A DNA stretch of 64,000 nt. It comes from an uncultured bacterium (GTDB lineage Bacteria; Patescibacteriota; Minisyncoccia; Moranbacterales; GWC2-37-73). The stretch lies in assembly GCA_903837175.1 (NCBI GenBank), contig CAILTR010000050.1:17513-81512 (forward strand), written 5' to 3'. Below, one piece after another: positions 5,717 through 46,333 of the stretch; positions within the stretch are counted from its first letter, which is position 1; every line of letters starts with the position of its first letter. The translations under genes and the position numbers were made by a program. The notes below the pieces were generated by a model that had not been told where the DNA came from, searched no databases, and worked only from the letters and a program-made list of their open reading frames with translations.

Positions 5717-6001
5717 TTATATCTCTTTTGAAATTTTCTTTTGCGACTGGAGTGCCAAACGAATACATTCTTCTGGGTCATAACCAAGATTTTCAGAAAA
5801 CTGTATCCCACAGACAATTAAGTTTCCTAATTCTTTTTTTAAACTATCATCAGTGTGTGAAACTTTGTCCTTAGCATAATTACGCTCCCAACGGCAAACG
5901 TCCCCAAAAACTTTTCCAATCACCACAATCATTTGAGAAAGTGAAAGTTTTTCACCTTGCCATATCTCTTGGGCTTGTTTTAAAATTTCTTTAATTTCCA
6001 T
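5717..6001 (-). CDS. MazG-like nucleotide pyrophosphohydrolase domain protein.
   Basis: About 94 aa, all-helical, with EIWQGEK...GDVCRWERN...E..E motifs like small MazG/NTP-PPase proteins. Confidence 0.55.
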   Translation of the reverse strand: MEIKEILKQAQEIWQGEKLSLSQMIVVIGKVFGDVCRWERNYAKDKVSHTDDSLKKELGNLIVCGIQFSENLGYDPEECIRLALQSQKKISKEI

Positions 6002-14818: not shown

Positions 14819-15251
14819 CTTTAATGGTTCCTCCTGCTTTCATTATAACATCTTTAGCAGTTTGTGAAAGGAGTAGCTCCTTCTCAATTGTCAGCTTCTT
14901 AGAAAGATCACCAGTGCTTAAAATTTTCACCCCATCTTTAGCATCTTTCTTGGAAATAACTTTCTTTGCAATTAAAGTTTCGATTGAAACTAGCTCGCCA
15001 TCTTTAAAGTTCTTTTCCAAATCAAAGATTTTAACAACCGTCTTTTTTGGAGTTCTAGATTTAAAACCGCGAACTTTCTTTAGACGTTCTGTCAAGGAGG
15101 ATCTTCCACCTTCAAACAAAGGATCAATCGCTGCTCCTGAGCGGGCTTTTTGACCTTTGTTTCCACGTCCAGAATATGTTCCGCGCTTTCCTCCGCGACC
15201 AACAGTTTTCTTTGGTTTTCTTTTCTTAAGTGTAAGTTGATGAATTTGCAT
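14814..15251 (-). CDS. rplO: Ribosomal protein L15.
   Basis: RGGKRGTYSGRGNKGQK motif. Start is MQIHQL at 15251. Confidence 0.9.
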   Translation of the reverse strand: MQIHQLTLKKRKPKKTVGRGGKRGTYSGRGNKGQKARSGAAIDPLFEGGRSSLTERLKKVRGFKSRTPKKTVVKIFDLEKNFKDGELVSIETLIAKKVISKKDAKDGVKILSTGDLSKKLTIEKELLLSQTAKDVIMKAGGTIKE

Positions 15252-15275
15252 ATGTTTTATATCTCTAATCAACAC

Positions 15276-15363
15276 TAATTATTTCACTAATTATCTCTAA
15301 TATCTTTCAATTTATATTCGCGAACATTCGAGAAAAATTCGTGTCGATTCGCGATTTATATCC
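15276..15363. repeat. Family A intergenic element, copy 1.
   Basis: ...ctctaatcaacactaattatttcactaattatctctaat...attcgcgaacattcgagaaaaattcgtgtcgattcgcgat... Confidence 0.85.
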
Positions 15364-15870
15364 TTAAGCTTCCTTAACCACGACCGCCTCAGCCTTAATC
15401 CTTGGCTCCTTTAGACTTCGCAAAGCTTCAATTGTTGCTCTGGCAACGTTTAATTTATTTGAAGTTCCCAGTGATTTTGAAACAATATCCCGGATTCCAG
15501 CCAAATCAACCACTGCGCGGACAGCTCCTCCAGCAATCACCCCTCGTCCTTCAGCCGCTGGCTTAAGTAAAATTTTAGCACTACCCTTTTTCATTTGAAC
15601 ATCATGCGGGATAGTATTTGCAGATAATTTTACAGTTATCATGCATTTTTTAGCATCGTTGTAAGCTTTTTGGATTGCATCAGAAACATCAGATCCTTTA
15701 GCTACCCCAACCCCAACTTGTCCCTTACGATTTCCGATTACGAGGGTTGCGCGAAAACGAAATCTTCGTCCGCCTTTAACTACGCGAGTAACTCTAGCCA
15801 AATCTAAAAGCTTTTGCTCAAATTCTGGCTTTTCTCTTCTCACTGGTTTTTTGCCTGATCTTTTATCCAT
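15364..15870 (-). CDS. rpsE: Ribosomal protein S5.
   Basis: Conserved S5 sequence. Confidence 0.95.
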   Translation of the reverse strand: MDKRSGKKPVRREKPEFEQKLLDLARVTRVVKGGRRFRFRATLVIGNRKGQVGVGVAKGSDVSDAIQKAYNDAKKCMITVKLSANTIPHDVQMKKGSAKILLKPAAEGRGVIAGGAVRAVVDLAGIRDIVSKSLGTSNKLNVARATIEALRSLKEPRIKAEAVVVKEA

Positions 15871-15983
15871 AATGTTATAAATCTCTAATTAACGCTAATC
15901 TTATCACTAATTATCTCTAATATTTTTCAAATTATATTCGCGAATATTCGAGAAAAATTCGTGTTGATTCGCGATTGATATCC
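15871..15983. repeat. Family A element, copy 2.
   Basis: Same consensus, with four phased ATTCG pentamers. Confidence 0.85.
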
Positions 15984-16334
15984 TTAAAATTTGAGTCCGC
16001 CTTCTCGAGCTCCTTCAGCTAAAGCCTTAACTCTTCCATGATATTGATAACCCGATCTATCGAAAGTCACAGTTTCTATCTTTAAAGCAAGACATTTTTC
16101 AGCAATTAATTTTCCAACTTCCTTGGCGCCTTCAATCGTATTTGAACTCTTCTTAATTTCTGAAAGTTTTGCGCTAGCCAAAGTTTTTCCAGTAGTATCA
16201 TCAATCGCTTGAGCATAAATACTTTTCAAGCTTTTAAAAACCGACAAACGCGGTCGCTCAGCGCTACCTGAAATTTTTGCGCGCACACGACGTTTTCGTT
16301 GCAAACGACTACTATTGTTACTTGGTTTTTTCAT
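15984..16334 (-). CDS. rplR: Ribosomal protein L18.
   Basis: Conserved L18 sequence. Confidence 0.93.
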
Positions 16335-16444
16335 AATGGTATAAATCTCTAATCAACACTAATTATTTCACTAATTATCTCTAATATTTTTAATTATATT
16401 CGCGAACATTCGAGAAAAATTCGTGTCGATTCGCGATTTATTTC
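16335..16444. repeat. Family A element, copy 3.
   Basis: Same consensus. Confidence 0.85.
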
Positions 16445-16981
16445 TTACTTGGATGATTTCTTGCCTTCTTTTCTGCGAACATGTTCTCCGGTGTATTTAA
16501 AGCCTTTTCCTTTATACGGTTCTACTGGCTTAAGCGCTCTGATATTGGCTGAAAATTGTCCAACTTCATGCTTATCAATCCCGGAAACGGTCATTGTATT
16601 TCCTTCAATAATGATTTCAAGCGTTTCTGGAATTTGAACTTCAACTGGGTGTGAAAAACCAAGCGCTAAATTAATTTTCTTACCTGCTACTGCCATACGG
16701 AAACCAACTCCGTTAAGTTCAAGTTGTTTTTTAAAACCAACGGTTACGCCTTCAAACATATTTTCAATAATCCTAGCAGTTGTACCCCAAATCGCTGGCG
16801 CATTTTTTCCTTTTCCTACTTTCGCAACTAAGATAGTTTCCGGTGAAATTTCAATAACGACATCTTCATGATGCTCAAATTTAAGAGTGCCCTTTGGCCC
16901 TTTAACGGAAACCAAATTCTTATCTACAGCGATAGTCACTCCCTGAGGAATAGCTACAGGTTTTTTTCCAATTCTACTCAT
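16445..16981 (-). CDS. rplF: Ribosomal protein L6.
   Basis: Conserved L6 sequence. Confidence 0.95.
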   Translation of the reverse strand: MSRIGKKPVAIPQGVTIAVDKNLVSVKGPKGTLKFEHHEDVVIEISPETILVAKVGKGKNAPAIWGTTARIIENMFEGVTVGFKKQLELNGVGFRMAVAGKKINLALGFSHPVEVQIPETLEIIIEGNTMTVSGIDKHEVGQFSANIRALKPVEPYKGKGFKYTGEHVRRKEGKKSSK

Positions 16982-17094
16982 AATGTTATAAATCTCTAAT
17001 CAACACTAATTATTTCGCTAATTATCCCTAATATTTTTTAAATTATATTCGCGAACATTCGAGAAAAATTCGTGTCGATTCGCGATTTATATAA
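16982..17094. repeat. Family A element, copy 4.
   Basis: Same consensus. Confidence 0.85.
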
Positions 17095-17499
17095 TTACCA
17101 GACTTCACAAATTATTTCACCACCTAAACCGAGTTTTCTTGCGCTATCTCCTGTCATGATTCCTTTCGAAGTGGAAACAATTGAAATCCCATAGCCATTC
17201 TTGATTCGCTTGATATCATTTTTCTTCACATAGATCCGCTGGCCCTGTCTACTTACTCGCTTTATTTCTCTAATGGCCGGATTTTTCTCAGTGTTTGAAA
17301 CAACCTCATACTTCAAAGTTATATTGAGGACTGGAAATTTTTCTCCGTCTTCTTTTTTCACAGCTTGAATAAAATTTCGTTGCTGCAAAATTTGAGCAAT
17401 TGAATATTTTAACTTCGAAAAAGGAACCGAAACTTTTGCATGTTTCGCTCGCTGTGCATTTCGAATTCTTGTAAGCATGTCTGCTATTGGATCTAACAT
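17095..17499 (-). CDS. rpsH: Ribosomal protein S8.
   Basis: MLDPIADMLTRIRNA N-terminus. Confidence 0.95.
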   Translation of the reverse strand: MLDPIADMLTRIRNAQRAKHAKVSVPFSKLKYSIAQILQQRNFIQAVKKEDGEKFPVLNITLKYEVVSNTEKNPAIREIKRVSRQGQRIYVKKNDIKRIKNGYGISIVSTSKGIMTGDSARKLGLGGEIICEVW

Positions 17500-17639
17500 A
17501 TTCTAATTCATTATCCTAATTATATTTAAATGATATAAATCGCCAATCTTCACTAATCTTTTCACTAATAATCACTAATTTTGAAATTTTATTTGCGATT
17601 ATTCGAGATACTATTTGAGTTGATTCGTGATTTATAATG
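17500..17639. repeat. Family A element, copy 5 (divergent).
   Basis: ...cactaat...attcgagatactatttgagttgattcgtgat... Confidence 0.6.
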
Positions 17640-17825
17640 CTACCAACTACTTTTCTTTACTCCGGGCAATTCACCTTTACTTGCTAATTCGCGAAAGCAA
17701 ATTCTGCAAATATCAAATGCTCGAAGATAACCATGTTTTCGACCACAACGCCAACACCTTCGCACAATCCGTGTCGAAAATTTTGGTTTCTTCTCTGCTC
17801 TAGCTTGGGTAGATGTTTTCGCCAT
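17640..17825 (-). CDS. rpsZ: Ribosomal protein S14 type Z (zinc-binding).
   Basis: 61 aa with CWRCGRKHG...CRIC. Confidence 0.93.
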
Positions 17826-17995
17826 TTTTGTCTATGAGCGGAGCGAGTAGCTACAAAAATGAGCGTCCCGCACCAATTCTTAAATTAAACTTTATCTTAT
17901 ATCAAACTGAGCCGTAGGCGAATTCCGAAAGAAAATTTCAATTCTACTTAAAAACTTCTTTCGGAATTGTTTGCGGGACAGCCATCACAATTTAT
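17826..17995. promoter_or_regulatory. Structured 170-nt spacer between rplE and rpsZ built from nested inverted repeats.
   Basis: Outer gtcccgca (17865-17872) pairs with tgcgggac (17972-17979). An inner perfect 11-bp stem ttccgaaagaa (17924-17934) pairs with ttctttcggaa (17957-17967). Confidence 0.5.
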
Positions 17996-18544
17996 TTATT
18001 CGCTTTTCAGTGGAAATCCTAATAATTTAAATAATTCCAATCCCTGCTCTTGTGAAACAGCACTAGTTGAAACTGTTACTTGCAATCCAAAAGTGTGTTT
18101 TACTCGTTCAGGTGAAATTTCAGGAAAAATTAAATGCTCTCTAATTCCAATATTAATGTTGCCACTCGTATCAACCGATTTTCTACCAATTCCCTGGAAA
18201 TCTCGCGTTCTTGGAAGGGTTGCTACAATCAATCTATCAATAAACTGCCACATTCTTGCTCCGCGCAAAGTTACTTTCACACCGACTTCCATGCCTTCTC
18301 TAGTCTTAAAGCCGGCGATTGCTTTCTTAGCTTTCGTCTTAACTGGTTTTTGACCAGTAATCGCAGTTAGTGTATTGACGATCTCTTCAATTTTATCATT
18401 TTCTTTGACAATTTTTCCAATTCCAACATTAACAACCACTTTCTGAATGCGAGGTACTGCCATAACACTCTTATAGCCAAACTTTTCTTGCATTTGCTTT
18501 GCAACTGTTTTGGAATATTTTTCTTTTGCTGGAATTATTTTCAT
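17996..18544 (-). CDS. rplE: Ribosomal protein L5.
   Basis: Conserved L5 sequence. Confidence 0.95.
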   Translation of the reverse strand: MKIIPAKEKYSKTVAKQMQEKFGYKSVMAVPRIQKVVVNVGIGKIVKENDKIEEIVNTLTAITGQKPVKTKAKKAIAGFKTREGMEVGVKVTLRGARMWQFIDRLIVATLPRTRDFQGIGRKSVDTSGNINIGIREHLIFPEISPERVKHTFGLQVTVSTSAVSQEQGLELFKLLGFPLKSE

Positions 18545-18651
18545 AATAGTATAAATCTCTAATTAATCACTAATCTATTTCACTAATTATCCCTAATGTT
18601 TTTTATTCGCGACTATTCGAGAAAAATTCGTGTCGATTCGCGATTTATTTT
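18545..18651. repeat. Family A element, copy 6.
   Basis: Same consensus. Confidence 0.85.
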
Positions 18652-18957
18652 CTACATTTCTTTCCCACATTTCTTACATACTCGGACCTTTTTCTCTTGC
18701 ACAAACGCATATGAGGTTCGGGTCGATTTACCGCAGGATGGGCAAACCAACATCGCATTTGAAGCATCGAACGGAGCAGCCATTTCAACCCGCTGGCCCT
18801 TTTCACCTTCTCGGCGAGCTTTCTTATGCTTCTTTACAATATTCATTTTTTCAACCACGATCCTTCCCTCACTTGGAATTGTTCGGAGGACTTTCCCCTG
18901 TTTACCCTTATCCTTACCGGCAATTTTTTTTACGAGGTCTCCTTTTTTAATTCTCAT
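18652..18957 (-). CDS. rplX: Ribosomal protein L24 with a C-terminal Cys4 zinc ribbon.
   Basis: KOW motif GKDKGKQGKV, then CPSCG...CKKCG at the C-terminus. Confidence 0.92.
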   Translation of the reverse strand: MRIKKGDLVKKIAGKDKGKQGKVLRTIPSEGRIVVEKMNIVKKHKKARREGEKGQRVEMAAPFDASNAMLVCPSCGKSTRTSYAFVQEKKVRVCKKCGKEM

Positions 18958-19066
18958 AATGTTATAAATCTCTAATTAACGCTAATCTTATCTCTAATTA
19001 TCTCTAATATTTTTTACTATTCGCGAAAATTCGAGAAAAATTCGTGTCGATTCGCGATTGATATCC
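18958..19066. repeat. Family A element, copy 7.
   Basis: Same consensus. Confidence 0.85.
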
Positions 19067-19432
19067 TTACAGTACTTCTGGAGCCAATGAAACAATCTTG
19101 GCAAATCCTTTTTCTCGCAATTCTCTAGCGATTGGTCCAAAAATACGAGTTCCCTTCGGTTCTTTTTCATTAACAATCACAGCGGCATTTTCATCAAAGC
19201 GAATATAGGAACCATCTTTTCTGCGATAAGCTTTTCGTTGGCGAACAATCACAGCCCGAACCTTATCTCCCTTTTTTACTAAACCTCTTGGTTCAGCTGA
19301 TTTCACAGAGCAAACAATGATATCTCCAACCGAAGCATAACGTCTGCGAGTTCCACCAAGAACCTTGAAGCATTCAATTATTTTTGCTCCAGAATTATCC
19401 GCTGCTCTTAATCTTGTTTCTGCCTGAATCAT
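19067..19432 (-). CDS. rplN: Ribosomal protein L14.
   Basis: [18 protein letters not shown]-terminus. Confidence 0.95.
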
Positions 19433-19543
19433 ATGTTTAAATAAATCTCTAATTAACGCTAATCTTATCTCTAATTATCTCTAATATTTTTTACTATTCG
19501 CGATCATTCGAGAAAAATTCGTGTCGATTCGCGATTGATATCC
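19433..19543. repeat. Family A element, copy 8.
   Basis: Same consensus. Confidence 0.85.
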
Positions 19544-19783
19544 TTATATTACGATGTGATTTTTATCCTTACTCATTGGCCGACATTCAGTAAACTCTAC
19601 CACCTCTCCAACCTTGTGCTTATTTTCGGCGTCATGAACCTTATAGTTTTTGGTCGATCGATACTTCTTTAAATATTTCGGATGCGTCTTCAAGGATTGA
19701 ACAGCCACCACAATAGTCTTATCCATTGAGTCACTCACAACTTTACCTTTTTTTGTTGCTAATTTTTTAGTAGTGTTTGTCAT
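19544..19783 (-). CDS. rpsQ: Ribosomal protein S17.
   Basis: Conserved S17 OB-fold sequence. Confidence 0.93.
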   Translation of the reverse strand: MTNTTKKLATKKGKVVSDSMDKTIVVAVQSLKTHPKYLKKYRSTKNYKVHDAENKHKVGEVVEFTECRPMSKDKNHIVI

Positions 19784-19811
19784 ATCCTAGTTTTTATCCT
19801 AATTATATATT

Positions 19812-20000
19812 TTATTGCTCTTTCTCTTTTAGAATAGTCATCGCCCGCGCTACATCCTTTTTAAGCTCGCGGTACTCTCGATGATTCTTAAGCTGACGAG
19901 CTGCAATATCAAATCTAAGCTTAACTGCTTGAGATTGCTTCTCAGCGATTAATTTCTTAATCTGCTCAATATTTAAATCTCTAATTTCCAAAATTTTCAT
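19812..20000 (-). CDS. rpmC: Ribosomal protein L29.
   Basis: 62-aa helical protein in the conserved position between S17 and L16. Confidence 0.9.
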   Translation of the reverse strand: MKILEIRDLNIEQIKKLIAEKQSQAVKLRFDIAARQLKNHREYRELKKDVARAMTILKEKEQ

Positions 20001-20113
20001 AATGTTATAAATCGCTAATTAATCACTAATCTACTTCCCTAATTATCCCTAATGTTCTTTTCTTATTCGCGACCATTCGAGAAAAATTCGTGTCGATTCG
20101 CGATTACTATCCT
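20001..20113. repeat. Family A element, copy 9.
   Basis: Same consensus. Confidence 0.85.
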
Positions 20114-20527
20114 CTATTTTTCCTTAACTACAAATTTCGTCTTAACGCATAGTTTGTGAGAAGCCAATCTCATCGCCTCTTTAGCAACTGAGATATCTAT
20201 GCCATCCATCTCAAACAAAACTCTGCCTTCCTTGGTCTTGGCTACAAAATGATCAACACTACCCTTTCCTTTACCCATCGGAGTTTCATCACCCTTCTTA
20301 GTCATCGGTTTATCCGGGAAAATTCTAATCCAAATCTTTCCACCTCTCTTAATATACCTCGTCATCGCTCTTCGAGCAGCTTCGATCTGACGAGCTGAAA
20401 TTAATCCTGAGGTTGTTGCTTTAAGACCAAAGCTACCGAAACTTACAGTATTACCTTTGGTTGCAACTCCACGGATTGCTCCTCCGCGATGAATCTTCCT
20501 GTGTTTTACTTTTTTTGGCATCAACAT
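20114..20527 (-). CDS. rplP: Ribosomal protein L16.
   Basis: [11 protein letters not shown] start at 20527. The ORF extension to 20551 lies inside a degenerate Family A remnant. Confidence 0.93.
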
Positions 20528-20595
20528 ATATTTTGGTAAATCCCTAATCAACGCTAATTATTCCCTAATTTTCTCGAATCTTTTTTCATTGGTGA

Positions 20596-21273
20596 CTATT
20601 TAAGACTAGCTTCAGCTTGATTCGCATTTTTTTCTTCAAAGACTTCTCCCTTGTAAATCCAAGTCTTAATTCCAATTGCGCCATAGGTAGTGAACGCCGT
20701 AGCTTTAGCGAAATCTATGTCAGCCCGTAGCGTATGCAATGGAACCGTTCCTCTTGAAAGCCATTCTCTTCTAGCCATTTCAGCTCCGCCCAAACGACCG
20801 CAAATCTCAATCTTGACTCCCTTAACAATTCTATTTTTTTCAACTGTATCAAGGGTTGATTTCAAAATACGTCTAAATGGCACTCGCTTTTCTAACTGTT
20901 CAGCCACGCTTTGCGCAACTAGCGAAGCATTTTCCTCAAACTGACGGACTTCCTGAGCTTCTATTTTAAGGTCAACCTTCCTACCGGCGAAAAAGTTTTT
21001 CTTAATCACTACTCCCATATCAACGATACCAGTGCCACCCCTTCCAATCAGAACTCCCGGGCGCGATGTTTTCACGATCAATTTTAGAGTATTTGCGCTA
21101 CGCTCAATTTCAACCTCTGCAATTGCCGCTGCTTTATACTTTTTCATGATAAACTCCCTAATTTGGATATCCTCCTTGAGTTTTTTAGTATAATCCTTAT
21201 CTGAAAACCACCTTGATTTCCAAGTGTTGGTAATACCTATTCTAAGTCCAGTTGGGTTAACTTTATGTCCCAT
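20596..21273 (-). CDS. rpsC: Ribosomal protein S3.
   Basis: MGHKVNPTGLRIG N-terminus and a KH domain. Confidence 0.95.
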   Translation of the reverse strand: MGHKVNPTGLRIGITNTWKSRWFSDKDYTKKLKEDIQIREFIMKKYKAAAIAEVEIERSANTLKLIVKTSRPGVLIGRGGTGIVDMGVVIKKNFFAGRKVDLKIEAQEVRQFEENASLVAQSVAEQLEKRVPFRRILKSTLDTVEKNRIVKGVKIEICGRLGGAEMARREWLSRGTVPLHTLRADIDFAKATAFTTYGAIGIKTWIYKGEVFEEKNANQAEASLK

Positions 21274-21312
21274 AAATTCTAATTTAATATCCTAATTATA
21301 TGCTAATTAAAT

Positions 21313-21873
21313 TTAAACGCCTGATTTCCGCTGAAAAACTTTATTCAAAAAATTACCATCTTGTTGTTGTCCTTTTTTAGGAACTTCCTTTTTTACAGCA
21401 GTCTTTTTCGTCGCAGTCTTTTTTTCGCCCACAACTTCAGCGTCTTGCACCTCTTCTTCTTTAACGCTTTTCTTGATAGCCTTTTCTTTCACGGCTCGTT
21501 CCTTCTCTAACTGCTCTTTCGATTTACGATTTTTACCTTCGACTCGCTCTTCCAATTCCAAATCAATCTGGGAAGTTCTCTTGAGAATCAAAGTTGCTCT
21601 TCCTTGAGCCCTTGGCAACCATCTTTTTAAACTTGGTCCCCCGCCAACTTGAATATTATTTACAAACAAATTGTCCTTATCTAAACCAAAGTTATTTTCC
21701 GCATTTGCAATCGCGCTTCGCAGAAGCTTTTCCAAAGGATTACTTGTTTTCTTAACAAGGTTTTGCAATTGGATCAATGCCACAGAGCAGTTCATCCCAA
21801 CAATGCTGCGGGTAACTAATCTAACCTTTCGGGGAGACATTCTTAAATTTTTGAGTGTTGCTGTAACTTTCAT
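21313..21873 (-). CDS. rplV: Ribosomal protein L22 with a ~70-aa Lys/Glu-rich C-terminal extension.
   Basis: L22 core at the N-terminus, then a low-complexity KEKAIKKSVKEEE... tail. Confidence 0.92.
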   Translation of the reverse strand: MKVTATLKNLRMSPRKVRLVTRSIVGMNCSVALIQLQNLVKKTSNPLEKLLRSAIANAENNFGLDKDNLFVNNIQVGGGPSLKRWLPRAQGRATLILKRTSQIDLELEERVEGKNRKSKEQLEKERAVKEKAIKKSVKEEEVQDAEVVGEKKTATKKTAVKKEVPKKGQQQDGNFLNKVFQRKSGV

Positions 21874-22021
21874 GTATTTCTCTACGAATTACTAATTTGT
21901 ACGAATGTACGAATCATGATTCATTTGTATATGACATTAAATTCTAACTTTTATTAAATTTATAATCTCTTTTGCATTTCTTTCGTATATTCGTATCTGT
22001 TCGTAATTCGTAGAGATTTAC
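21874..22021. repeat. Family B-type element with terminal inverted repeats ctctacgaattac / gtaattcgtagag.
   Basis: TIRs lie at 21880-21892 and 22003-22015. Internal tacgaat repeats. Confidence 0.7.
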
Positions 22022-22369
22022 CTATTTTTTCTTCGCTCCTCCTGCTGGTTCAGCCTTGGCTGCTTTAGCGGCATCTTGCGCTTTTTGCTTAGCTGCTGAT
22101 TCTAATTCTTTCTGCATCTTCCCTCCATGTCGGGTGAACTTACGAGTTGGAGAAAATTCTCCAAGTCTATGCCCAACTGTTTCTTCAGTAATATAAACTG
22201 GGATAAATTCTTTTCCATTATGCACTCCGAAAGTAAAACCAATCATTTCTGGGGTAATCGTGCAAGCTCGAGACCAGGTCTTAATAGTTCCTTGCGCTGG
22301 GGTTGCATTTAAAACCTTCTTTACAACGCGCTCATCAATATATGGTCCTTTTTTTAAACTTCTTGACAT
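22022..22369 (-). CDS. rpsS: Ribosomal protein S19 with a Lys/Ala-rich C-terminal tail.
   Basis: [13 protein letters not shown]-terminus; tail ...[24 protein letters not shown]. Confidence 0.93.
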
Positions 22370-22482
22370 AATGTTATAAATCTCTAATCAATGCTAATTA
22401 TTTCACTAATTATCTCTAATATTTCTCAATGCTTATTCGCGAAAATTCGAGAAAAATTCGTATCGATTCGCGACTATTATCC
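22370..22482. repeat. Family A element, copy 11.
   Basis: Same consensus. Confidence 0.85.
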
Positions 22483-23313
22483 TTATTTCTTAACTCTTCG
22501 TTTAACGATAAACTTATCGCTGTATCTCTTTTTCTTTCTGGTCTTTTTTCCAAGCGCTGGCTTACCCCAAGGTGTTTTCGGATGTTTCAACCCAATTCCT
22601 TGTCTGCCTTCTCCTCCTCCATGTGGATGATCAACTGGATTCATAGCTGAACCTCGAACTTCCGGTCTTTTTCCTTTCCATCGATTTCTTCCAGCCTTAC
22701 CAATTTTTTCAGCGCTATGTTCGAAATTACTTACTTTCCCAATCGTTGCCCAGCAATCCTTACTAACCAATCTGATTTCATTAGAGGCCATTTTAAGCTG
22801 AGCCATTTTTCCATCGATAGCCATCAAAATTGCTCCTGAGCCAGCACTGCGAGCCATCTGTCCGCCCTTCCCAACCACTAACTCCACATTTGAAATAACT
22901 GTACCGGAAGGAATATTACGAAGAACAGTTCTATTTCCCTTTTTAATCGGTGCATTTTCTCCAGAAACAATTTCAACATCTTGTTTCATCCCTTCGGAGG
23001 CAAGCACATATCGCTTATCACCATCTTTATAAGATACCAAAGCAATCAAAGCACTTCTGTTTGGATCTCTTTCGATTGCAATAATTTTTCCAGGAATATC
23101 AAATTTCTGTTGTTTAAAATCAACTAAGCGATAGCGTCGTTTGTGTCCACCACCTTGATGCCTAGTAGAGATTTTTCCGTGACTGCGTCCGGCCTTTTGG
23201 GTCATTGGAGCAAGTAAAGATTTCTCCGGTTTTTTGTCGGTAAGATCGTCAGGCTTAACAATAGACATATTGCGCCTTCCCGCTGTATTTTTTTTGTATA
23301 CTTTAATTGCCAT
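22483..23313 (-). CDS. rplB: Ribosomal protein L2.
   Basis: Conserved L2 sequence, including the GGGHKRRYR region. Confidence 0.96.
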   Translation of the reverse strand: MAIKVYKKNTAGRRNMSIVKPDDLTDKKPEKSLLAPMTQKAGRSHGKISTRHQGGGHKRRYRLVDFKQQKFDIPGKIIAIERDPNRSALIALVSYKDGDKRYVLASEGMKQDVEIVSGENAPIKKGNRTVLRNIPSGTVISNVELVVGKGGQMARSAGSGAILMAIDGKMAQLKMASNEIRLVSKDCWATIGKVSNFEHSAEKIGKAGRNRWKGKRPEVRGSAMNPVDHPHGGGEGRQGIGLKHPKTPWGKPALGKKTRKKKRYSDKFIVKRRVKK

Positions 23314-23423
23314 AATAGTATAAATCTCTAATCAACACTAATTATTTCACTAATTATCACTAATATTCTTCTTATTCGCGATTATTCGAGTTTAAATTCG
23401 AGTCGATTCGCGATTTCTATCCG
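23314..23423. repeat. Family A element, copy 12.
   Basis: Same consensus. Confidence 0.85.
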
Positions 23424-23807
23424 CTAGGCTCCCTGGAATAGTTCAATTTTATCTCCCTCTTTCAGAGTAACGATTGCTTTTTTAATCGCTGACTTCGTAC
23501 CTTCAAATCTACCATATACTCTCTTTTTCGGGATAAAATTCATTACTGCAACCTTCTCAACTTTAACTTTATAAAAACCCTCGATTGCCTTTTTAACCTC
23601 AGCTTTCGTAGCCTGCCTGGTAATCCTAAAAACATATTTATTATCGGCAAGTCCCGCGTGTGATTTTTCCGTAATCCAAGGCTCCACTAAAATTTTATAA
23701 GCAATTTCAGCATTTTCAACAGCGATAGGCAAAACCTTTTTCGCTACTTTCTTAACTGCCACTTCTTTCTTTGAAGTCTTTTCTTTTTTTTCTTCAATTA
23801 CTGCCAT
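23424..23807 (-). CDS. rplW: Ribosomal protein L23 with a Lys-rich N-terminal extension.
   Basis: L23 core (YVFRI...KVKVEKV) preceded by roughly 30 extra residues. Confidence 0.9.
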   Translation of the reverse strand: MAVIEEKKEKTSKKEVAVKKVAKKVLPIAVENAEIAYKILVEPWITEKSHAGLADNKYVFRITRQATKAEVKKAIEGFYKVKVEKVAVMNFIPKKRVYGRFEGTKSAIKKAIVTLKEGDKIELFQGA

Positions 23808-23895
23808 ATATTTTTACCGATACGAAACTACGAATTATATACGAATCTACGAAACTTTTCGAATGGGCGCTTTCGTGGTGCGCTTTTCGCATGCT
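23808..23895. repeat. Family B element, copy 1: ccgatacgaaactacgaattatatacgaatctacgaaa...gggcgctttcgtggtgcgc.
   Basis: Nearly identical to the copy at 24526-24614. Confidence 0.85.
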
Positions 23896-24525
23896 TTATT
23901 TTGCAAATTTTTCTTCCAAAAATGTAATCGAGGCCTTACTCAAAAGCACATATTTATTATTGAGTAAATCATATACATTCAAATCTTTCGTCTCAATGTT
24001 AGCTATTTTTGGAATATTTCGGCTAGCTAAAGTCAAACTCTTCTCTCCTTCTGAAAATGAAACCAAAATTTTTCCGGTTAATTTCAAATTTTTTATAATT
24101 TGAGCAAAAGCTTTAGTTTTTTTGTCTTTAAGTTCAAGTGCGTCAACGGCCACAAGGGTCCCGCTGCGAAGCTTTTCACTTAGGGCAATACGTACCGCCT
24201 TTTGCTTCATCTTCTTATTCACATCTCTTTTAAAATTACGATCACTTGTTGGTCCGAAAGCTACTCCACCACCTTTCATGACAGGATTTCGCTTCTGGCC
24301 TTGTCTAGCACTACCGGTGCCCTTTTGCTTAAAGGGTTTCTTTCCGCTTCCAGCAACTTCACTCTTATCTTTTGTATTAGCAATTGAAAATCGCTGATTA
24401 CCAGCAATCACCATAAAAACTTGATGCAAAAGTTCATCATTTGATTTCACGGCGAAAACTGCATCTGAGATATTTAAATCTTCAAGCTTTTTTCCTTCTA
24501 AGTTGTGCAGGGCAATTGTAGCCAT
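23896..24525 (-). CDS. rplD: Ribosomal protein L4.
   Basis: Conserved L4 sequence. Confidence 0.94.
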   Translation of the reverse strand: MATIALHNLEGKKLEDLNISDAVFAVKSNDELLHQVFMVIAGNQRFSIANTKDKSEVAGSGKKPFKQKGTGSARQGQKRNPVMKGGGVAFGPTSDRNFKRDVNKKMKQKAVRIALSEKLRSGTLVAVDALELKDKKTKAFAQIIKNLKLTGKILVSFSEGEKSLTLASRNIPKIANIETKDLNVYDLLNNKYVLLSKASITFLEEKFAK

Positions 24526-24614
24526 AATATTTATACCGATACGAAACTACGAATTATATACGAATCTACGAAATTTTCGAATGGGCGCTTTCGTAGTGCG
24601 CTTTTCGGATGCTT
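24526..24614. repeat. Family B element, copy 2.
   Basis: Nearly identical to the copy at 23808-23895. Confidence 0.85.
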
Positions 24615-25390: not shown

Positions 25391-25486
25391 AAGCGATTCG
25401 CGATTATTTGCATGTGTCCCCTTCCATCATTCGCATGTGCCCCATTCGTTATTCGCATGGGCGCTTTCGTAGTGCGCTTTCGCATG
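25391..25486. repeat. Family B variant with cattcgcatg x3 and a shared right arm gggcgctttcgtagtgcgctttcgcatgct.
   Basis: Right arm matches the Family B copies at 23808 and 24526. Confidence 0.7.
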
Positions 25487-25819
25487 CTACATTTTAATCT
25501 CCACGTCTACCCCAGCTGGTAAATCAAGCCCCGTGAGACTTTCAATAGTCTTAGCAGTTGGGTCCCAGATATCAACAAGTCGCTTATGAATTCGCATTTC
25601 ATATTGCTCCCGAGCATCCTTATGCACAAAAGTTGATTTATTCACAGTTACTTTGTGAATCTCTGTTGGAAGGGGTACTGGGCCAGTTACTCTAGCGCCT
25701 GTTCTTTCAGCAGTTTCAACGATTTTTCGCGCTGACTGATCGATCACTTTGCTGTCATAAGCTTTGATCTTGATTCTGATTCTTGTAGATTGTCCTGTTT
25801 CTATTTTTTTCGAAGCCAT
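25487..25819 (-). CDS. rpsJ: Ribosomal protein S10.
   Basis: Conserved S10 sequence. Confidence 0.95.
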
Positions 25820-41431: not shown

Positions 41432-42892
41432 TTGAAAGAAAAAAGCACTACAGAATTTGCAAATTTTAGCCACCCTCGCTATGATTACCTAACTATGCAA
41501 ATCAAGACTATGCCACAATTTGAAGCCTACCTCAAAGCCCGCATTCCAACGCGAGAGGCTTTATTTGTGGGAGACTTAGGCTTGCAAAGAGCCAAATATT
41601 TTATGCGAGTATTGGGCAACCCGCAAAACAAAATTAAAGTAATCCACATCGCCGGCACTTCAGGCAAAGGCTCGACCGCTTATTTAACCAGCCACCTTTT
41701 GCAAAGCCAAGGTTTTCGGGTTGGACTTTCAATTTCCCCCCATATTTTTGACATTCGCGAACGTTTGCAAATTAATAACAAATTACCAAGTAAAAAATTA
41801 ATTTTAAAGTATTTCAATCAAATCCTGCCGACAATTTTAAAAATGGAAAAATGCCGCTATGGCATGCCAACCTATTTCGAAATTCTGGTCGGCCTAGCTT
41901 ACTATATTTTCGCCCAAGAAAAAATCGACTACGGCATTATAGAGACTGGCCTTGGAGGTCGGCTCGATGGAACCAATACAGTCACCAATAAAAATAAAAT
42001 CTGCATCCTCACAAAAATCGGACTTGACCACACTGAAATTCTCGGCAACACCCTAGCCAAAATTGCCAGTGAAAAAGCTGGCATCATTCAGAATCAAAAT
42101 GCAGTAATCAGCCATCAGCCTGCCTCGTCGGCAGACAGGTCATCAGTAACCATTAACCAGCTAATTGTTACTAAATGCCGAGAAAAGAGTGCAACTTTAT
42201 ATTTGATAAAACCTCGAAAAAATTATCAGCTAATCACTTCGACCCAAGCAGGAACTTTTTTTGATTTCACCTATGCCGTTGACGGCTCGGAGCTTAGCTC
42301 CGAAACTATACTCAATTTTAAAAACATTAAACTAAACTTGCTAGGTTTCCACCAAGTCGAAAACTGCTCCCTAGCTTTAACTTGTCTTTCACTTTTATCA
42401 AAGCGTGATAAATTCCCAATCAACGAAAAAAAAATGCGCATCGCCCTGCAAAAAATTTCCATCCCAGGCCGGATGGAAATTCGCAAAAACGGCAAAAACT
42501 TTCTCATTATTGACGGAGCGCATAATCCCCAGAAAATGACCACCTTCATTACTAGCCTAAAACTTATCTTTCCTGACCAAAAATTTGATTTTATTTTAGC
42601 CTTCAAAAAAGGCAAAGATTTTAAGCGGATCCTAAAAAAAATTCTCCCACTCGCCAACCACGTTTTTCTCACGAGCTTCTCAACCTCTAACCAAGATGAC
42701 CATTGGAGTTCTGTTAATAACGCTGAAATTGCAAACTATTTTAAAAAAGAAAAATTCAAAAACTTTTCCATTATTAAAAATAACGAAGCAGAGGTCCTTG
42801 CCGCTATTCAAAGCTCAAAGAAATCCATCGTCCTTACTGGCTCACTTTATCTGATTGGTTCAGTTTATGCTTATCTAAATAAAGCAAATTAA
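41432..42892 (+). CDS. folC: Folylpolyglutamate synthase / dihydrofolate synthase (Mur ligase family), carrying an in-frame palindromic element insertion.
   Basis: IAGTSGKGST P-loop and Mur ligase middle and C-terminal domains. Insertion ...SHQPASSADRSSVT... is encoded by 42110-42150. Confidence 0.8.
   Translation: MKEKSTTEFANFSHPRYDYLTMQIKTMPQFEAYLKARIPTREALFVGDLGLQRAKYFMRVLGNPQNKIKVIHIAGTSGKGSTAYLTSHLLQSQGFRVGLSISPHIFDIRERLQINNKLPSKKLILKYFNQILPTILKMEKCRYGMPTYFEILVGLAYYIFAQEKIDYGIIETGLGGRLDGTNTVTNKNKICILTKIGLDHTEILGNTLAKIASEKAGIIQNQNAVISHQPASSADRSSVTINQLIVTKCREKSATLYLIKPRKNYQLITSTQAGTFFDFTYAVDGSELSSETILNFKNIKLNLLGFHQVENCSLALTCLSLLSKRDKFPINEKKMRIALQKISIPGRMEIRKNGKNFLIIDGAHNPQKMTTFITSLKLIFPDQKFDFILAFKKGKDFKRILKKILPLANHVFLTSFSTSNQDDHWSSVNNAEIANYFKKEKFKNFSIIKNNEAEVLAAIQSSKKSIVLTGSLYLIGSVYAYLNKAN
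42110..42150. repeat. GC-rich palindromic element inside the folC coding sequence.
   Basis: cagccatcagcctgcctcgtcggcagacaggtcatcagtaac. Confidence 0.8.
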
Positions 42893-42895
42893 ACT

Positions 42896-43087
42896 TTACT
42901 TTAAACTATTTTCTTTAAATTCTTTAACAGCCAATGTTTCCTCAATAACTTCACCTTTATATAATTTTTGCAAGAGAAGTGGCACGGCGCAGTTTTCACA
43001 TTTTCCCCAAGCGCAACTAGCCTTCTTTTTAAACATTTTTTGGCACAAGGAAATTTCAGTATCAAATGTTTCTTTTGAAATTAGCAT
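42896..43087 (-). CDS. Small Cys-rich hypothetical protein (63 aa).
   Basis: ORF on the gene strand with CxxxxxxxxxCAWGKCENC. Confidence 0.3.
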   Translation of the reverse strand: MLISKETFDTEISLCQKMFKKKASCAWGKCENCAVPLLLQKLYKGEVIEETLAVKEFKENSLK

Positions 43088-43091
43088 AGCA

Positions 43092-43352
43092 TTATTTAAA
43101 GGATATTATTTGATAACCATATTTTTCAACATCTTCTTCGCTCCAAAAGCTCAGATCTTTTGTTTTTAAAATATAAGAAACTTCTTTTTCTAAAACTCTT
43201 CCAGTTAGCTCTTTAGTTTCTGGATTCCACTCACTTAAGATTAAAATGTCACCCTCTTCACATTTCCAATCAGCAAGTCAAAGTTCATATTTTTTGTCGC
43301 CATCCAATAATTTCTGAAAATACTGTGGCCAAACTTTTTTCTCAATACGCAT
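43092..43352 (-). pseudogene. DUF3850/ASCH-like small protein gene interrupted by an in-frame TGA at codon 25.
   Basis: Reads MRIEKKVWPQYFQKLLDGDKKYEL*LADWKCEEGDILILSEWNPETKELTGRVLEKEVSYI.... The TGA sits where family members have a conserved Arg, consistent with CGA to TGA. Confidence 0.55.
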
Positions 43353-43361
43353 AATGATATT

Positions 43362-44267
43362 TTATATTATTTTTAATTCCTCTAACCACTCTCGCCAAAC
43401 TGGCTCAAGACCTGGACTAGTTTTCCAATCTTCGTTGGAAATTTCTCCAGCTAAATATTGCTCGCAACGCTTGGCAAGTTTTCTTAGCTCATCAACACTA
43501 ACCCATTTGAGCTGTTTCGTTTCAGAAAGACTACAATTAAGTTCGCCCTCAACCTCAACCTCAAAAATCTGCCAGAAGTGCCAGGTGCCATCAATTCTGC
43601 GACAAGGATTTTCTTTGCGACCTTTGCCTAATAATTTCAATGCCTTAACCGCAAGCCCAGTTTCCTCAAACAACTCGACCCTCGCCACTTCTTCAAAGCT
43701 CTCATTCCCATCCAAGTGCCCAGCTGGCAACGCAAAAGCAAATGGAAATTTCATTCGCTCAAGCAAAAGAATTTTCTCATCTTTTCGAACAAGCATCCCA
43801 ACACTCTTATGATCGCAAATTTTTGCCCCAATTAAATATGGTTTGAGTTTTTCAAAATCTCCCTCCAAGGATACGTCAAACATCGCCTTAATTTCATCGG
43901 CATAGGAAACTTCTTCTGGCACCGAGTTGAGCAAGAAAATCTTTTTGTTGTTCACATGGGCAAACCCTATTTCCATAAGGGTATTGCCACCAACATAGTT
44001 TTTGATGCCTTTTTTGTCAAAATTTAGAACTAAAATTCCGTCACTTGAGCAAATAGCATCATAATACCATTTGATATAACCTTGTGCCTTTTTAGCTTGA
44101 TAATGCTCACCGCCTGAAATTTGATTCCAAATTTCCTGCTTTTCACCTTTCACAAAAGCTTCATAATCAGGATGCACAATAGCTTCATGACCCATCGCAA
44201 AAATTTTATCACGATATTCTAACATTTGTTCCTTGAAAGCTGAGCTTCCACAAATTGTAATTTTCAT
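43362..44267 (-). CDS. Fusion of a nucleoside 2-deoxyribosyltransferase-like domain and a Nudix hydrolase.
   Basis: N-terminal ITICGS...ILVLNFDKKG...YVGGNTLMEIGFA, matching NDT-like D.GT..E.G. C-terminal Nudix box GHLDGNESFEEVARVELFEETG. Confidence 0.7.
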   Translation of the reverse strand: MKITICGSSAFKEQMLEYRDKIFAMGHEAIVHPDYEAFVKGEKQEIWNQISGGEHYQAKKAQGYIKWYYDAICSSDGILVLNFDKKGIKNYVGGNTLMEIGFAHVNNKKIFLLNSVPEEVSYADEIKAMFDVSLEGDFEKLKPYLIGAKICDHKSVGMLVRKDEKILLLERMKFPFAFALPAGHLDGNESFEEVARVELFEETGLAVKALKLLGKGRKENPCRRIDGTWHFWQIFEVEVEGELNCSLSETKQLKWVSVDELRKLAKRCEQYLAGEISNEDWKTSPGLEPVWREWLEELKII

Positions 44268-44367
44268 ATTATTTTTAAATGTGATGATTCATCTTTTTTA
44301 AATCCTCGCCCAAAATAATTGATTGTATTGCAATTAATTCATCCGTATATGAAAATATTCAAATAAA

Positions 44368-44775
44368 TTATCCCACGAGTTTTAGGTTTCCCCCTAAAAT
44401 AACTGGCCTTGTTATTTTTATCTCCAAAGCATAACGCAAGATATTTTCAGCTGGAATTTCATACAACAAAAAAATTTTCTTGTCCAAGTGTCTTGCCAAA
44501 CCAATTTCCATCAAAGTTGCTCCCCCGACATATCCGTCGATTCCATTTTTTGGATAATTTAAAACCACAATCGCCTCGCTAGCCGCGACCTTCTTAAAAC
44601 AACTCTTATCTATGTCAGTTAAAATGCAATGTTCAAAATCCATATTTAAATTTGGATTCTCAACACATTCATGAGTATCACATGGAATCATAACCTCGTG
44701 TCCAATTTCTGCAAGAATTTTCTGAGCTTCCAACATTTCCTTTGCAAAACCCATACTGCCACAGATCATAATCTT
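44368..44775 (-). CDS. Nucleoside 2-deoxyribosyltransferase-like protein, paralog of the 43362-44267 N-terminal domain.
   Basis: MICGSMGF...IVVLNYPKNG...YVGGATLMEIGLA. Confidence 0.65.
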   Translation of the reverse strand, partial: KIMICGSMGFAKEMLEAQKILAEIGHEVMIPCDTHECVENPNLNMDFEHCILTDIDKSCFKKVAASEAIVVLNYPKNGIDGYVGGATLMEIGLARHLDKKIFLLYEIPAENILRYALEIKITRPVILGGNLKLVG

Positions 44776-44814
44776 CATAAAAATTATTTTCAAAAAAATT
44801 ATTGCATTCTTATT

Positions 44815-44888
44815 TCCTAAAAACCTAAAAGCTAATGAAGTTTACCCCGTGGCAAATGCCACTGGGGCTATAAGCTAAAAGCTATTCC
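44815..44888. repeat. Family D repeat (cctaaaagcta) with a central hairpin ccccgtggcaaatgccactgggg, 3' of lysS.
   Basis: Read directly from the sequence. Related copies at 46334-46373, 37966-37997 and 27291-27325. Confidence 0.7.
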
Positions 44889-46333
44889 CGCTCTTTCATT
44901 GGCGGGAAAATTACACATTCACGGATTGATTTATCCATTAAAAAAGAAAAGAAGCGCTCACTAAGTCCAAAACCAAAAGCAGGTGGCATGCCATATTCCA
45001 GGGCTTCGACAAAATCTTCATCAATCATTTGCGCTTCCGCGTCACCTGCCTCTCGCAGAGCCATTTGGTCCTCGAAGCGGGCTTTTTGATCAATTGGGTC
45101 ATTTAGCTCTGCAAAGGCATTACAAAGCTCAGCTGTACCAGCTACGATTTGAAAACGCAAAACTTTCTTAGGATTGGTTGGATCCTTTTTAGCTAGGGGT
45201 GAAACTTCGAGCGGATGTCCAACTAAAAAACAAGGTTGAATCATTTTTAGGCGCACAGTTTTTTTATAGATCGTATCAATCATCCGGCCTTTACCATAGG
45301 ATTTTTCGTATTTAATTCCAAGTTCGTCGGCTTTCGCCATTAAGTTTTGAACGGAAATATCCTGCGACAAGTCCAAGCCAGTTTCTTTTTCAAACGCTTC
45401 AAAATAGTCCACAACTGGAAAAGGTTTTTCCCAATCAATCGAAGCTCCCTCATACTGCGTAACCAAACCACCAGTAACATTTTTCACAACTTCTCTGGTC
45501 ATTTTTTCCGAAAATTCCATCCCAGTTTTTAAATCCCAATAAGCTGCATAAAATTCCATGTGATCGAATTCCTGTAAGTGATGCCTATCAATGCCCTCAT
45601 TGCGAAAAACTCGTCCAATTTCAAAAACTTTCTCATAACCGCCCACCAATAACCTTTTCAAAGAAAGCTCCAGAGAGATTCGCATAAAAAAATCTCGGTC
45701 AAGCGCGTTGTGATGCGTAATGAAAGGCTCCGCGTCAGCTCCGCCAGGTGTGTGCTCAAAGACAGGATTCTGCACTTCCAAAAAACCAGTCGTAGCTAAA
45801 AAATTTCGAATCGTTTGCCAGAAAATATTTTTCTTGCGAAAAAGTTCTCTCGTATCAGGATTTATCATCAAATCCAAATACCTTTTTCGCAAAAGTTCTT
45901 CTTCATCTTTAATTCCAAAATGCTCCGTTGGAATTGGGCGAATATTTTTACTAAGCATTTTCCAATCAGTCACCTTCAATGATCTCTCTTCGGTTTTCGT
46001 CAAAAATAACTGTCCAGTCACCTGCACAAAATCTCCCAAATCAACATTCTTCACAAAAAGTTTAAACAATTCTTCCAGCATATTGCCCTTGTTCAAAAAA
46101 AGTTGCATCTTGCCAGACTCATCTTCAATGTTAGCAAAAGCGCTGCCGCCCATTGGTCGCATCGAACGCACTCGTCCAACTAAAGTAACTGCTCGTTCTC
46201 CTATTTCATCAAACTTCTCTAACGCCTCGGCATTTTTAAAATCCCGCTGAGTTTTTTCCGGATAAGCTTCCATGCCAAACTCCCTAACTTGATTTAATTT
46301 TTCAATTTTTACCTGTAAAATATCTTCTCGCAT
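44882..46333 (-). CDS. lysS: Lysyl-tRNA synthetase, class II.
   Basis: N-terminal OB anticodon-binding domain and class II motifs 1-3. Confidence 0.93.
   Translation of the reverse strand: MREDILQVKIEKLNQVREFGMEAYPEKTQRDFKNAEALEKFDEIGERAVTLVGRVRSMRPMGGSAFANIEDESGKMQLFLNKGNMLEELFKLFVKNVDLGDFVQVTGQLFLTKTEERSLKVTDWKMLSKNIRPIPTEHFGIKDEEELLRKRYLDLMINPDTRELFRKKNIFWQTIRNFLATTGFLEVQNPVFEHTPGGADAEPFITHHNALDRDFFMRISLELSLKRLLVGGYEKVFEIGRVFRNEGIDRHHLQEFDHMEFYAAYWDLKTGMEFSEKMTREVVKNVTGGLVTQYEGASIDWEKPFPVVDYFEAFEKETGLDLSQDISVQNLMAKADELGIKYEKSYGKGRMIDTIYKKTVRLKMIQPCFLVGHPLEVSPLAKKDPTNPKKVLRFQIVAGTAELCNAFAELNDPIDQKARFEDQMALREAGDAEAQMIDEDFVEALEYGMPPAFGFGLSERFFSFLMDKSIRECVIFPPMKERE

Follow-up and report, generated by a model that had tools for sequence, protein, structure and literature searches.

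The 64-kb stretch of DNA analysed here (the window, from contig CAILTR010000050.1) carries a cluster of four co-directional minus-strand genes between lysS and folC. One of them encodes a domain resembling nucleoside deoxyribosyltransferases (NDT-like) fused to a Nudix hydrolase. It is accompanied by a stand-alone NDT-like paralog, by a DUF3850/ASCH gene interrupted by a single in-frame TGA and by a short open reading frame (ORF) with four cysteines. The best explanation for the locus, which we hold to be reasonably likely when all its parts are taken jointly, is a small accessory operon for nucleotide processing in the core genome of an ultra-small, Moranbacteria-like Patescibacterium. The cluster is a variation on an already known theme and no new type of system. 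The three adjacent minus-strand genes announced by the original prediction, which was made from the letters alone, lie where it placed them. From lysS to folC the features are:

44882-46333, minus strand: lysS, flank of the cluster
44368..44778, minus strand: stand-alone NDT-like gene, 136 amino acids (aa) from the ATG at 44778, with MKIMICGS...GGATLMEIG
43362-44267, minus strand: NDT-like+Nudix fusion gene, 301 aa
43833..44267, minus strand: N-terminal NDT-like domain of the fusion, aa 1-~145, with ICGS...GGNTLMEIG
43362..43832, minus strand: linker, C-terminal Nudix domain and stop codon of the fusion, aa ~146-301
43092-43352, minus strand: DUF3850/ASCH gene with a GKER-type octapeptide, 86 codons plus TAA, one nonsense codon
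43278-43280, minus strand: in-frame TGA, codon 25 of the DUF3850 gene, next base C, replacing the Arg of GxKxxExR
42896-43087, minus strand: four-Cys ORF, 63 aa (C15, C25, C30, C33), 4 nt downstream of the DUF3850 stop
41432-42892, plus strand: folC, flank of the cluster

The paralog and the fusion are separated by 100 nt, the fusion and the DUF3850 gene by 9 nt, and the latter and the four-Cys ORF by 4 nt. The reading frame of the stand-alone gene reaches upstream to a TTG at 44793, and the public gene call begins 3 codons after the ATG (133 aa). A promoter and terminator scan of the cluster identified no terminator, and promoter-like sites occurred at chance frequency. Since no terminator-like site lies inside the cluster, its four genes probably share a single transcript.

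NDT-like domains and their pyrophosphatase partners

The original prediction described an NDT-like domain fused to a Nudix hydrolase together with a second, free-standing NDT-like gene. The Nudix half of the fusion is clear: residues 153-264 match PF00293 with E=2.8e-17 (63.4 bits for a cut-off of 21.1). The Nudix box GHLDGNESFEEVARVELFEETGL (GHLDGNE-SFEEVAR-VELFEETGL) retains 8 of the 9 defined positions of GX5EX7REUXEEXGU. Foldseek matches in the PDB include the Nudix proteins DR1025, MutT, NudC, YmfB, Ndx1 and NudI (E~1e-8), with no clear subfamily. For the NDT-like half and for the paralog, the assignment is upheld by the fold and by transitive matches, and not by the Pfam threshold.

The N-terminal domain of the fusion is 39% identical to the paralog, and both share MKIxICGS and YVGG(N/A)TLMEIG. 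The AlphaFold2 model of the whole fusion has a predicted local distance difference test score (pLDDT) of 96, and that of the paralog a score of 92. Nudix matches swamped the Foldseek list of the whole fusion; the paralog model was used for the fold of the N-domain. Its top 18 PDB matches (E 7e-5 to 5e-3, TM-score 0.47-0.66) include 16 NDTs, BcmB or DNPH1 structures, the other 2 being the Enterococcus faecalis protein 7m5h. They are headed by the NDTs of Chroococcidiopsis, T. brucei and B. psychrosaccharolyticus, followed by BcmB, the E. faecalis homolog and human DNPH1 (PDB entries 8pqr, 2a0k and 6evs for the NDTs, 4jen for the CMP N-glycosidase and 8rpt for DNPH1); this leading group has E-values between 7e-5 and about 1e-3 and TM-scores of 0.5-0.66. 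DprA appears from rank 19 and TIR-STING at rank 22, with flavodoxin-like folds also lower. Among the viral models of BFVD, the top matches are phage and giant-virus NDTs. At the sequence level, a PDB profile search with the N-domain gave sub-threshold NDT and BcmB matches only, and a single-sequence search of the PDB nothing relevant. Weak PF05014 matches are present in 26 of 30 clade members (best E=1.3e-6), and some fusion members reach 4.8e-11. The NDT homology of the window proteins is therefore transitive, established through clade members that match PF05014 better. 

Four residues are invariant in the family alignments: S8, N82, G93 and E99 (fusion numbering). The last, E91 in the paralog, is the putative nucleophile within the GGNTLMEIG motif of the fusion and is invariant in alignments A3, A4 and A5. 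A profile alignment to human DNPH1 with hhalign (weak, E=0.018) pairs CGS with CGS and E99 with E104. Because of this fold and this nucleophile Glu, the domains are placed in the NDT superfamily, where the fusion N-domain and the paralog are members of an NDT/DNPH1/MilB clade that Pfam leaves unassigned. A SLOG/LOG identity was considered and rejected: 1 of 30 members matches LDcluster4 (E=0.06), and DprA and TIR rank below the NDT folds.

Several points count against an active NDT-like/Nudix enzyme pair. Both NDT-like proteins miss the PF05014 cut-off of 28.8 bits, the fusion N-domain with E=0.15 (12.7 bits) and the paralog with E=0.009 (16.6 bits). The same weak hhalign comparison (E=0.018) sets T4 and Y68 opposite Y24 and D80 of the DNPH1 triad; the sole check on the DNPH1 sequence used in it was that the numbering of Y24, D80 and E104 agrees with the names of mutants in the PDB. 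Outside the Glu, the active site looks divergent in these alignments. With such a triad, the domain might follow another chemistry or do no more than bind nucleotides. Moreover, the Nudix box carries a Val in place of the canonical Arg of 'REU'.

Full-length NDT-like+Nudix fusions are rare, with ~20 examples (36-79% identity) in 5.8 billion proteins, found in Moran-, Berkel-, Pace- and other Patescibacteria. The fusion was originally called uncommon, which holds for this pair of domains; however it is one case of a broad pattern in which the same N-domain is fused to several pyrophosphatases. Fusions to MazG (PF03819), to CYTH (PF01928) and to a second copy of itself were observed, and fusions with Maf (PF02545) occur in both domain orders. 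The commonest partner is NTPase_I-T/YjjX (PF01931), present in 18 of 40 long family representatives. Most relatives are nevertheless stand-alone proteins of 135-150 aa. A profile search of 1.84 billion cluster representatives retrieved 2,054 relatives with E<=1e-3, of which 1,093 have E<=1e-10; these family counts are approximate, the profile from alignment A5 having kept C-terminal columns (291 positions).

Gene neighbourhoods follow the same pattern. In 13 of the 14 related loci with DNA, the NDT-like gene adjoins, or is fused to, a same-strand Nudix, Maf, CYTH, HD or HIT gene. A 182-aa Nudix protein of another subfamily lies beside it in seven loci (L006, L008-L013), Maf in L016 and L003, CYTH in L003 and L005, HD in L003 and a HIT-like gene in L011. 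In the same lysS-folC slot as in the window, L016 carries Maf in place of Nudix. The halves of the window fusion are separate genes in L004 and L005, where up to three NDT-superfamily genes are found per locus, while L001 has a phosphoribosyltransferase between fusion and paralog. In a Falkowbacteria metagenome-assembled genome (MAG), three tandem 182-aa Nudix paralogs directly precede the NDT-like gene (L009, 2051-4146). Since the pyrophosphatase is swapped while the NDT-like partner stays, both probably act sequentially on the same nucleotide. Such non-orthologous replacement of the pyrophosphatase provides strong comparative evidence for sequential action.

A two-step route can be proposed from these elements. 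From what is known of the family, the Nudix domain would hydrolyse a (deoxy)nucleoside triphosphate ((d)NTP) to the corresponding monophosphate ((d)NMP) and pyrophosphate, the triphosphate probably being non-canonical or in surplus. The fold, the conserved Glu and the logic of the partners suggest that Glu99 of the NDT-like domain would then attack C1' of the (d)NMP. The base would be released, followed either by (deoxy)ribose-5-phosphate or by phosphopentosyl transfer to another base. As a consequence, the nucleotide could not be re-phosphorylated, while base and sugar-phosphate would be salvageable. The fold, the conserved Glu and the neighbourhood pattern are observations from which we infer the substrates and the hydrolase chemistry.

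YjjX, Maf, MazG and Nudix are classic 'house-cleaning' enzymes for non-canonical NTPs. Because the partners belong to such families, pool sanitation with salvage of base and sugar-phosphate is favoured. There are precedents for both steps. In PurZ0 phages, the NDT-like protein DmtZ acts as a dAMP N-glycosidase/phosphodeoxyribosyltransferase, and its gene adjoins, or is fused to, that of the dATP/dGTP pyrophosphatase DutZ (PMC12884076); human DNPH1 has an analogous sanitising role for hmdUMP (PMC10603095).

The NDT-like domain could instead be a transferase that swaps bases on (deoxy)nucleosides or NMPs, as NDTs or DmtZ do, and with which a poorly equipped cell would remake nucleotides. Its best structural matches are true NDT transferases, DmtZ performs both hydrolysis and phosphodeoxyribosyl transfer (PMC12884076), and both the phosphoribosyltransferase within the L001 cluster and the multiple NDT-superfamily genes of L004 and L005 would suit such a role. 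However, disposal accounts better than synthesis for partners that are, without exception, house-cleaning pyrophosphatases (YjjX, Maf, MazG, Nudix), and in the weak hhalign comparison other residues stand in place of the triad Tyr and Asp. We therefore consider a dedicated transferase unlikely.

The original prediction hesitated between nucleotide salvage or sanitation and a nucleotide-based conflict system. The first is favoured, and the second, an anti-phage module in which a SLOG/TIR-like sensor would be coupled to a Nudix effector depleting or degrading nucleotides or signals, appears very improbable. TIR, DprA and SLOG structures are indeed found lower in the fold list, but the NDT-family structures outrank SLOG and TIR, and the catalytic Glu of NDT enzymes is invariant. 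PADLOC returned weak matches to PDC-S07 (Nudix, 2.8e-6) and PDC-M11B (ASCH, 1.9e-4), both of them generic, and no match for the NDT-like paralog or the four-Cys ORF. The N-domain has no tblastn match in 50,697 phage genomes, and the surroundings are those of a core genome, with the housekeeping genes lysS, greA, folC and trmD. The conflict reading is kept alive only by the fast gene turnover at this locus, where Nudix, Maf and CYTH are exchanged, fusion and fission occur and a GIY-YIG gene is inserted in a sister strain.

The DUF3850 gene and its in-frame TGA

The DUF3850 gene of the window is, with fairly high confidence, a recent and fixed loss-of-function allele. It had been described as an ORF of ~85 codons with a TGA at codon 25 where an Arg (CGA) was expected, either a recent pseudogene or a case of readthrough, and the description proved accurate. 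When the TGA is replaced by X, the 86-codon frame matches PF12961 with E=5e-15 (55.8 bits, cut-off 22.9), while the match to the ASCH profile PF04266 is marginal (E=4e-4, 21.5 bits, cut-off 21.2). Of the ASCH octapeptide GxKxxExR, G18, K20 and E23 are kept and the codon of R25 is the TGA. Of 120 homologs, 119 have Arg at this codon. The orthologs in the lysS-folC slot read YELRLADW and encode the Arg with CGA (L004), CGC (L002), AGA (L003) or AGG (L005). CGA is the codon of the closest ortholog with DNA, matching a CGA-to-TGA change.

No other lesion is present in the gene. The intact 86-aa relatives P0102 and P0103 are 95% and 93% identical to the frame, and the sole residue differing from both is the conservative L15. 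Compared with L016 (93% aa identity, dS 0.42), the ratio of non-synonymous to synonymous substitution (dN/dS) is 0.085 over the gene as a whole and 0.049 in the part after the stop. The otherwise undamaged gene and the low dN/dS indicate that the lesion is very young or tolerated.

The same TGA is present in 3 assemblies from at least 2 samples, and it is therefore not an assembly error. Besides the ENA scaffold that contains the window (scaffold_79, sample SAMEA6872856), these are an 860-bp contig (L020, ENA scaffold_50246, sample SAMEA6872855) and a 2548-bp Logan contig (L019, ERR4193933_272610, run ERR4193933), both 100% identical to the window over their whole length, TGA included. They were located via an exact-protein look-up of the neighbouring 63-aa ORF; an exact-pattern scan of metagenome contigs for either allele gave no match. 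That the organism itself has an intact gene, the TGA being a sequencing, assembly or consensus error, might be entertained for a metagenome-assembled window with so minimal a lesion, a single C-to-T. With three identical assemblies, and no intact allele of this exact protein among 15 billion proteins, it is barely credible, and the read error that had to be considered can be set aside. A catalogued 'intact' 86-aa copy, P0371 (L019 271-531, corresponding to window 43092-43352), is the same DNA with the TGA translated as Trp. P0371 is a table-4 gene-calling artefact: automatic choice of the genetic code on short contigs can mask nonsense mutations.

TGA is a genuine stop codon in this genome. 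The window's minus-strand ORFs of >=100 aa (n=64) end in TAA (35), TAG (24) or TGA (5), and the terminal TGA of adk, pgk, mraY and an ispH-like gene falls at the expected place, with no sensible extension beyond it. For a bacterium of ~38% GC, TGA stops are unusually rare and TAG stops unusually common in the window. An alternative code (table 4 or 25) was rejected, since there is a single internal TGA in ~60 genes of the 64-kb window and TGA terminates the four genes just named. Re-initiation was likewise rejected: there is no in-frame ATG, GTG or TTG downstream of the TGA, and termination therefore yields a peptide of 24 aa. Selenocysteine insertion or programmed readthrough was rejected as well, as no Rfam element was found around the TGA, the RNA behind the UGA forms no significant hairpin (the 76-nt stretch that surrounds and follows it folds no better than 18 of 200 shuffled sequences, z=-1.6) and the TGA is absent from ~120 homologs and 6 orthologous loci. 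Known cases of UGA recoding (codes 4 and 25, selenocysteine, programmed readthrough) similarly show an in-frame UGA in an otherwise well-conserved gene. However, a single gene of the 64-kb window is affected here, other genes use TGA as their terminator and the relatives lack the internal TGA; moreover the position calls for Arg, and not for Trp, Gly or selenocysteine, and there is no element resembling a selenocysteine insertion sequence.

Two points speak against a pseudogene. Purifying selection as strong as that seen after the stop would equally be expected of a gene that still functions, and UGA-C is reportedly the leakiest bacterial stop context. Ribosomes could then pass the TGA, either constitutively or in a regulated manner, and insert Trp, Cys or Arg at codon 25 to give a functional DUF3850 protein, perhaps at a deliberately low level. 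Besides the context, said to be the weakest terminator tetranucleotide in E. coli, the seldom use of TGA as a stop here (5/64), the perfect remainder of the gene (dN/dS 0.05 after the stop) and the fixation of the allele in at least 2 samples would be consistent with this. None of the homologs or orthologous loci shares the TGA, however, and neither a stimulatory RNA structure nor an Rfam element accompanies it. The usual residue, Trp, would displace a 99%-conserved Arg that is essential in YqfB and TthASCH, and a very recent mutation would leave the gene looking intact anyway. Functional readthrough is thus quite improbable. In the pseudogene reading, a CGA-to-TGA transition at the motif Arg would have switched the gene off very recently, producing a young, strain-specific pseudogene that has become fixed in the population sampled. 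Low-level readthrough at UGA-C would at best yield some full-length protein, probably crippled without its motif Arg.

The same cluster has a different make-up in a sister strain. At its P0102 locus (ERZ1426816), DUF3850 is intact, the Nudix gene encodes only 86 aa and a GIY-YIG endonuclease gene lies between them. This reduced Nudix gene and the inserted endonuclease support the dispensability of the cluster. The P0102 strain and the window strain are losing different members of it. The nonsense codon itself is ordinary: it represents gene loss caught in progress, in a cluster that is dispensable and fast-evolving.

Members of the ASCH group deacetylate N4-acetylcytidine, either as free nucleoside or in tRNA (PMC6972931; bioRxiv 10.64898/2026.02.27.708502). 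The Arg equivalent to R25 is required in some of them: the Arg26Ala mutant of E. coli YqfB is inactive (PMC6972931), and TthASCH needs the motif Arg on the free nucleoside while EOLA1 does not (bioRxiv 10.64898/2026.02.27.708502). In YqfB this residue, mutated in the window, is proposed to form the oxyanion hole. DUF3850 resembles these amidohydrolases (YqfB, TthASCH, EOLA1) in belonging to the ASCH/PUA-like group and in its octapeptide G18, K20, E23, R25; it differs in being shorter (86 aa), in its marginal PF04266 match and, in the window strain, in being interrupted. Analogy with them suggests that it could be an amidohydrolase of the N4-acyl-cytidine type or could bind modified nucleosides or RNA, and handling of modified nucleosides would fit the cluster.

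The 86-aa DUF3850 protein is abundant, with 65-95% identity across Patescibacteria and DPANN archaea. Between Patescibacteria and DPANN (Woese-, Aenigm- and Nanoarchaeota) identity is 65-77%, unusually high for so small a protein, which suggests strong constraint or transfer. The four-Cys ORF (C-x9-C-x4-C-x2-C) has no match in Pfam, NCBIfam, PHROG or PADLOC and follows DUF3850 in every locus examined. In L002 (6916-7371) both form a single polypeptide of 151 aa; elsewhere they are adjacent, 4 nt apart. This arrangement suggests that DUF3850 and the four-Cys protein probably act together.

Setting of the cluster in the window

The window is part of the 98-kb ENA scaffold BUCK21-1_SAMEA6872856_METAG-scaffold_79. 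Its base composition is 37-41% GC, almost all of its genes are on the minus strand, and its nearest relatives are Moranbacteria-like and other Parcubacteria-group MAGs. Its housekeeping genes include those for ribosomal proteins, secY, adk, lysS, aspS, folC, trmD, mraY and pgk, as well as greA. A small ORF at 5717-6001, which the original prediction took for a MazG-like NTP pyrophosphohydrolase, does not bear this out: it has only sub-threshold matches to PF12643 (E=0.016, 15.8 bits, cut-off 27) and to an NTP pyrophosphohydrolase model of NCBIfam (E=0.036), and no relative in the PDB. It lies 37 kb away and does not belong to the cluster.

Ribosomal-protein operons are normally tightly packed. 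In the window, the operon at 15200-23450 has a conserved repeat of ~115-143 nt in nearly every intergenic gap. It is made up of a 54-nt unit that contains CTAAT sub-repeats and occurs 10 times (for example 16335-16388 and 22370-22423) and of a 61-nt unit in 9 copies, 'ATTCGCGA..ATTCGAGAAAAATTCGTGTCGATTCGCGA' (for example 18599-18659). The copies are mostly 75-96% identical to the reference copy, with one at 61%. A second repeat type occurs at 23808-23896, 24527-24614 and 25447-25490. Processing sites, promoters or mobile repeats are candidates for the function of the operon repeat.

Comparison with known systems and implications

The closest known system is DmtZ-DutZ of the PurZ0 (Z-genome) phages (PMC12884076). 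In both, a protein of the NDT superfamily with a DNPH1-like fold (acting on a dNMP in DmtZ) stands beside, or is fused to, the dNTP pyrophosphatase that produces its substrate in the phages and putatively does so here, and separate genes as well as fusions occur, as across the relatives of the window. They differ in the partner, which is Nudix here (Maf, MazG, YjjX or CYTH in relatives) and not a dUTPase-like fold. They also differ in location, the genes being chromosomal, in the core genome of a Patescibacterium and not in a phage, with no link to 2-aminoadenine seen. Finally, the sequence motifs differ (ICGS...GGNTLMEIG here), and no counterpart of the triad Tyr and Asp was recovered.

DNPH1 (Rcl, 2'-deoxynucleoside 5'-phosphate N-hydrolase) shares with the NDT-like domains the fold class, a strand-loop with 'CGS' near the N-terminus and the Glu with which a helix begins (xxE(L/I)G). 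The proposed role is also similar, namely the destruction of an unwanted NMP, blocking its re-entry into the pool (PMC10603095). In contrast, identity is only ~13-19%, Y24 and D80 align to T4 and Y68, and DNPH1 is not fused to a pyrophosphatase. Classical NDTs (PF05014) and MilB/BcmB provide the best structural matches (8pqr, 2a0k, 6evs, 4jen) and the weak PF05014 signal across the clade, although the window proteins remain under the gathering cut-off of that family. NDTs act on nucleosides, and MilB/BcmB on CMP in antibiotic pathways, neither with a systematic pairing to NTP pyrophosphatases.

The NDT-like/pyrophosphatase module thus varies a known theme: its partner is another one, its active site looks divergent and its genes are chromosomal, in bacteria of the candidate phyla radiation. 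Experiments have demonstrated a comparable pairing in Z-genome phages only, and the glycosidase step by itself in DNPH1.

Patescibacteria are not known to synthesise nucleotides de novo and depend on scavenged ones. How they clean and recycle their pools is poorly known, and the locus suggests a modular solution in which an NDT/DNPH1-like N-glycosidase is combined with one or another of several house-cleaning pyrophosphatases. The fusion represents a concrete enzyme that can be tested, with a model of pLDDT 96.

A more general proposal is tentative and, in our view, has the odds against it. The ICGS...GGNTLMEIG clade, which comprises at least ~1,000 clusters at 50% identity, may as a whole be a general NMP N-glycosidase/phospho(deoxy)ribosyl-transferase module that pairs with any NTP pyrophosphatase (Nudix, Maf, MazG, YjjX, CYTH, HD, HIT). 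If so, the module would lead from NTP to base and pentose-5-phosphate, or to base exchange. Genome-reduced Patescibacteria, and archaea with YjjX fusions, could rely on it as a principal way to sanitise, catabolise or re-tailor scavenged nucleotides. In the strongest form of the proposal, base exchange at the NMP level would partly make up for absent de novo or reductase pathways. The logic of sanitising a nucleotide pool in two steps has been demonstrated only lately, in Z-genome phages and human DNPH1, and would gain in breadth from a version widespread among prokaryotes.

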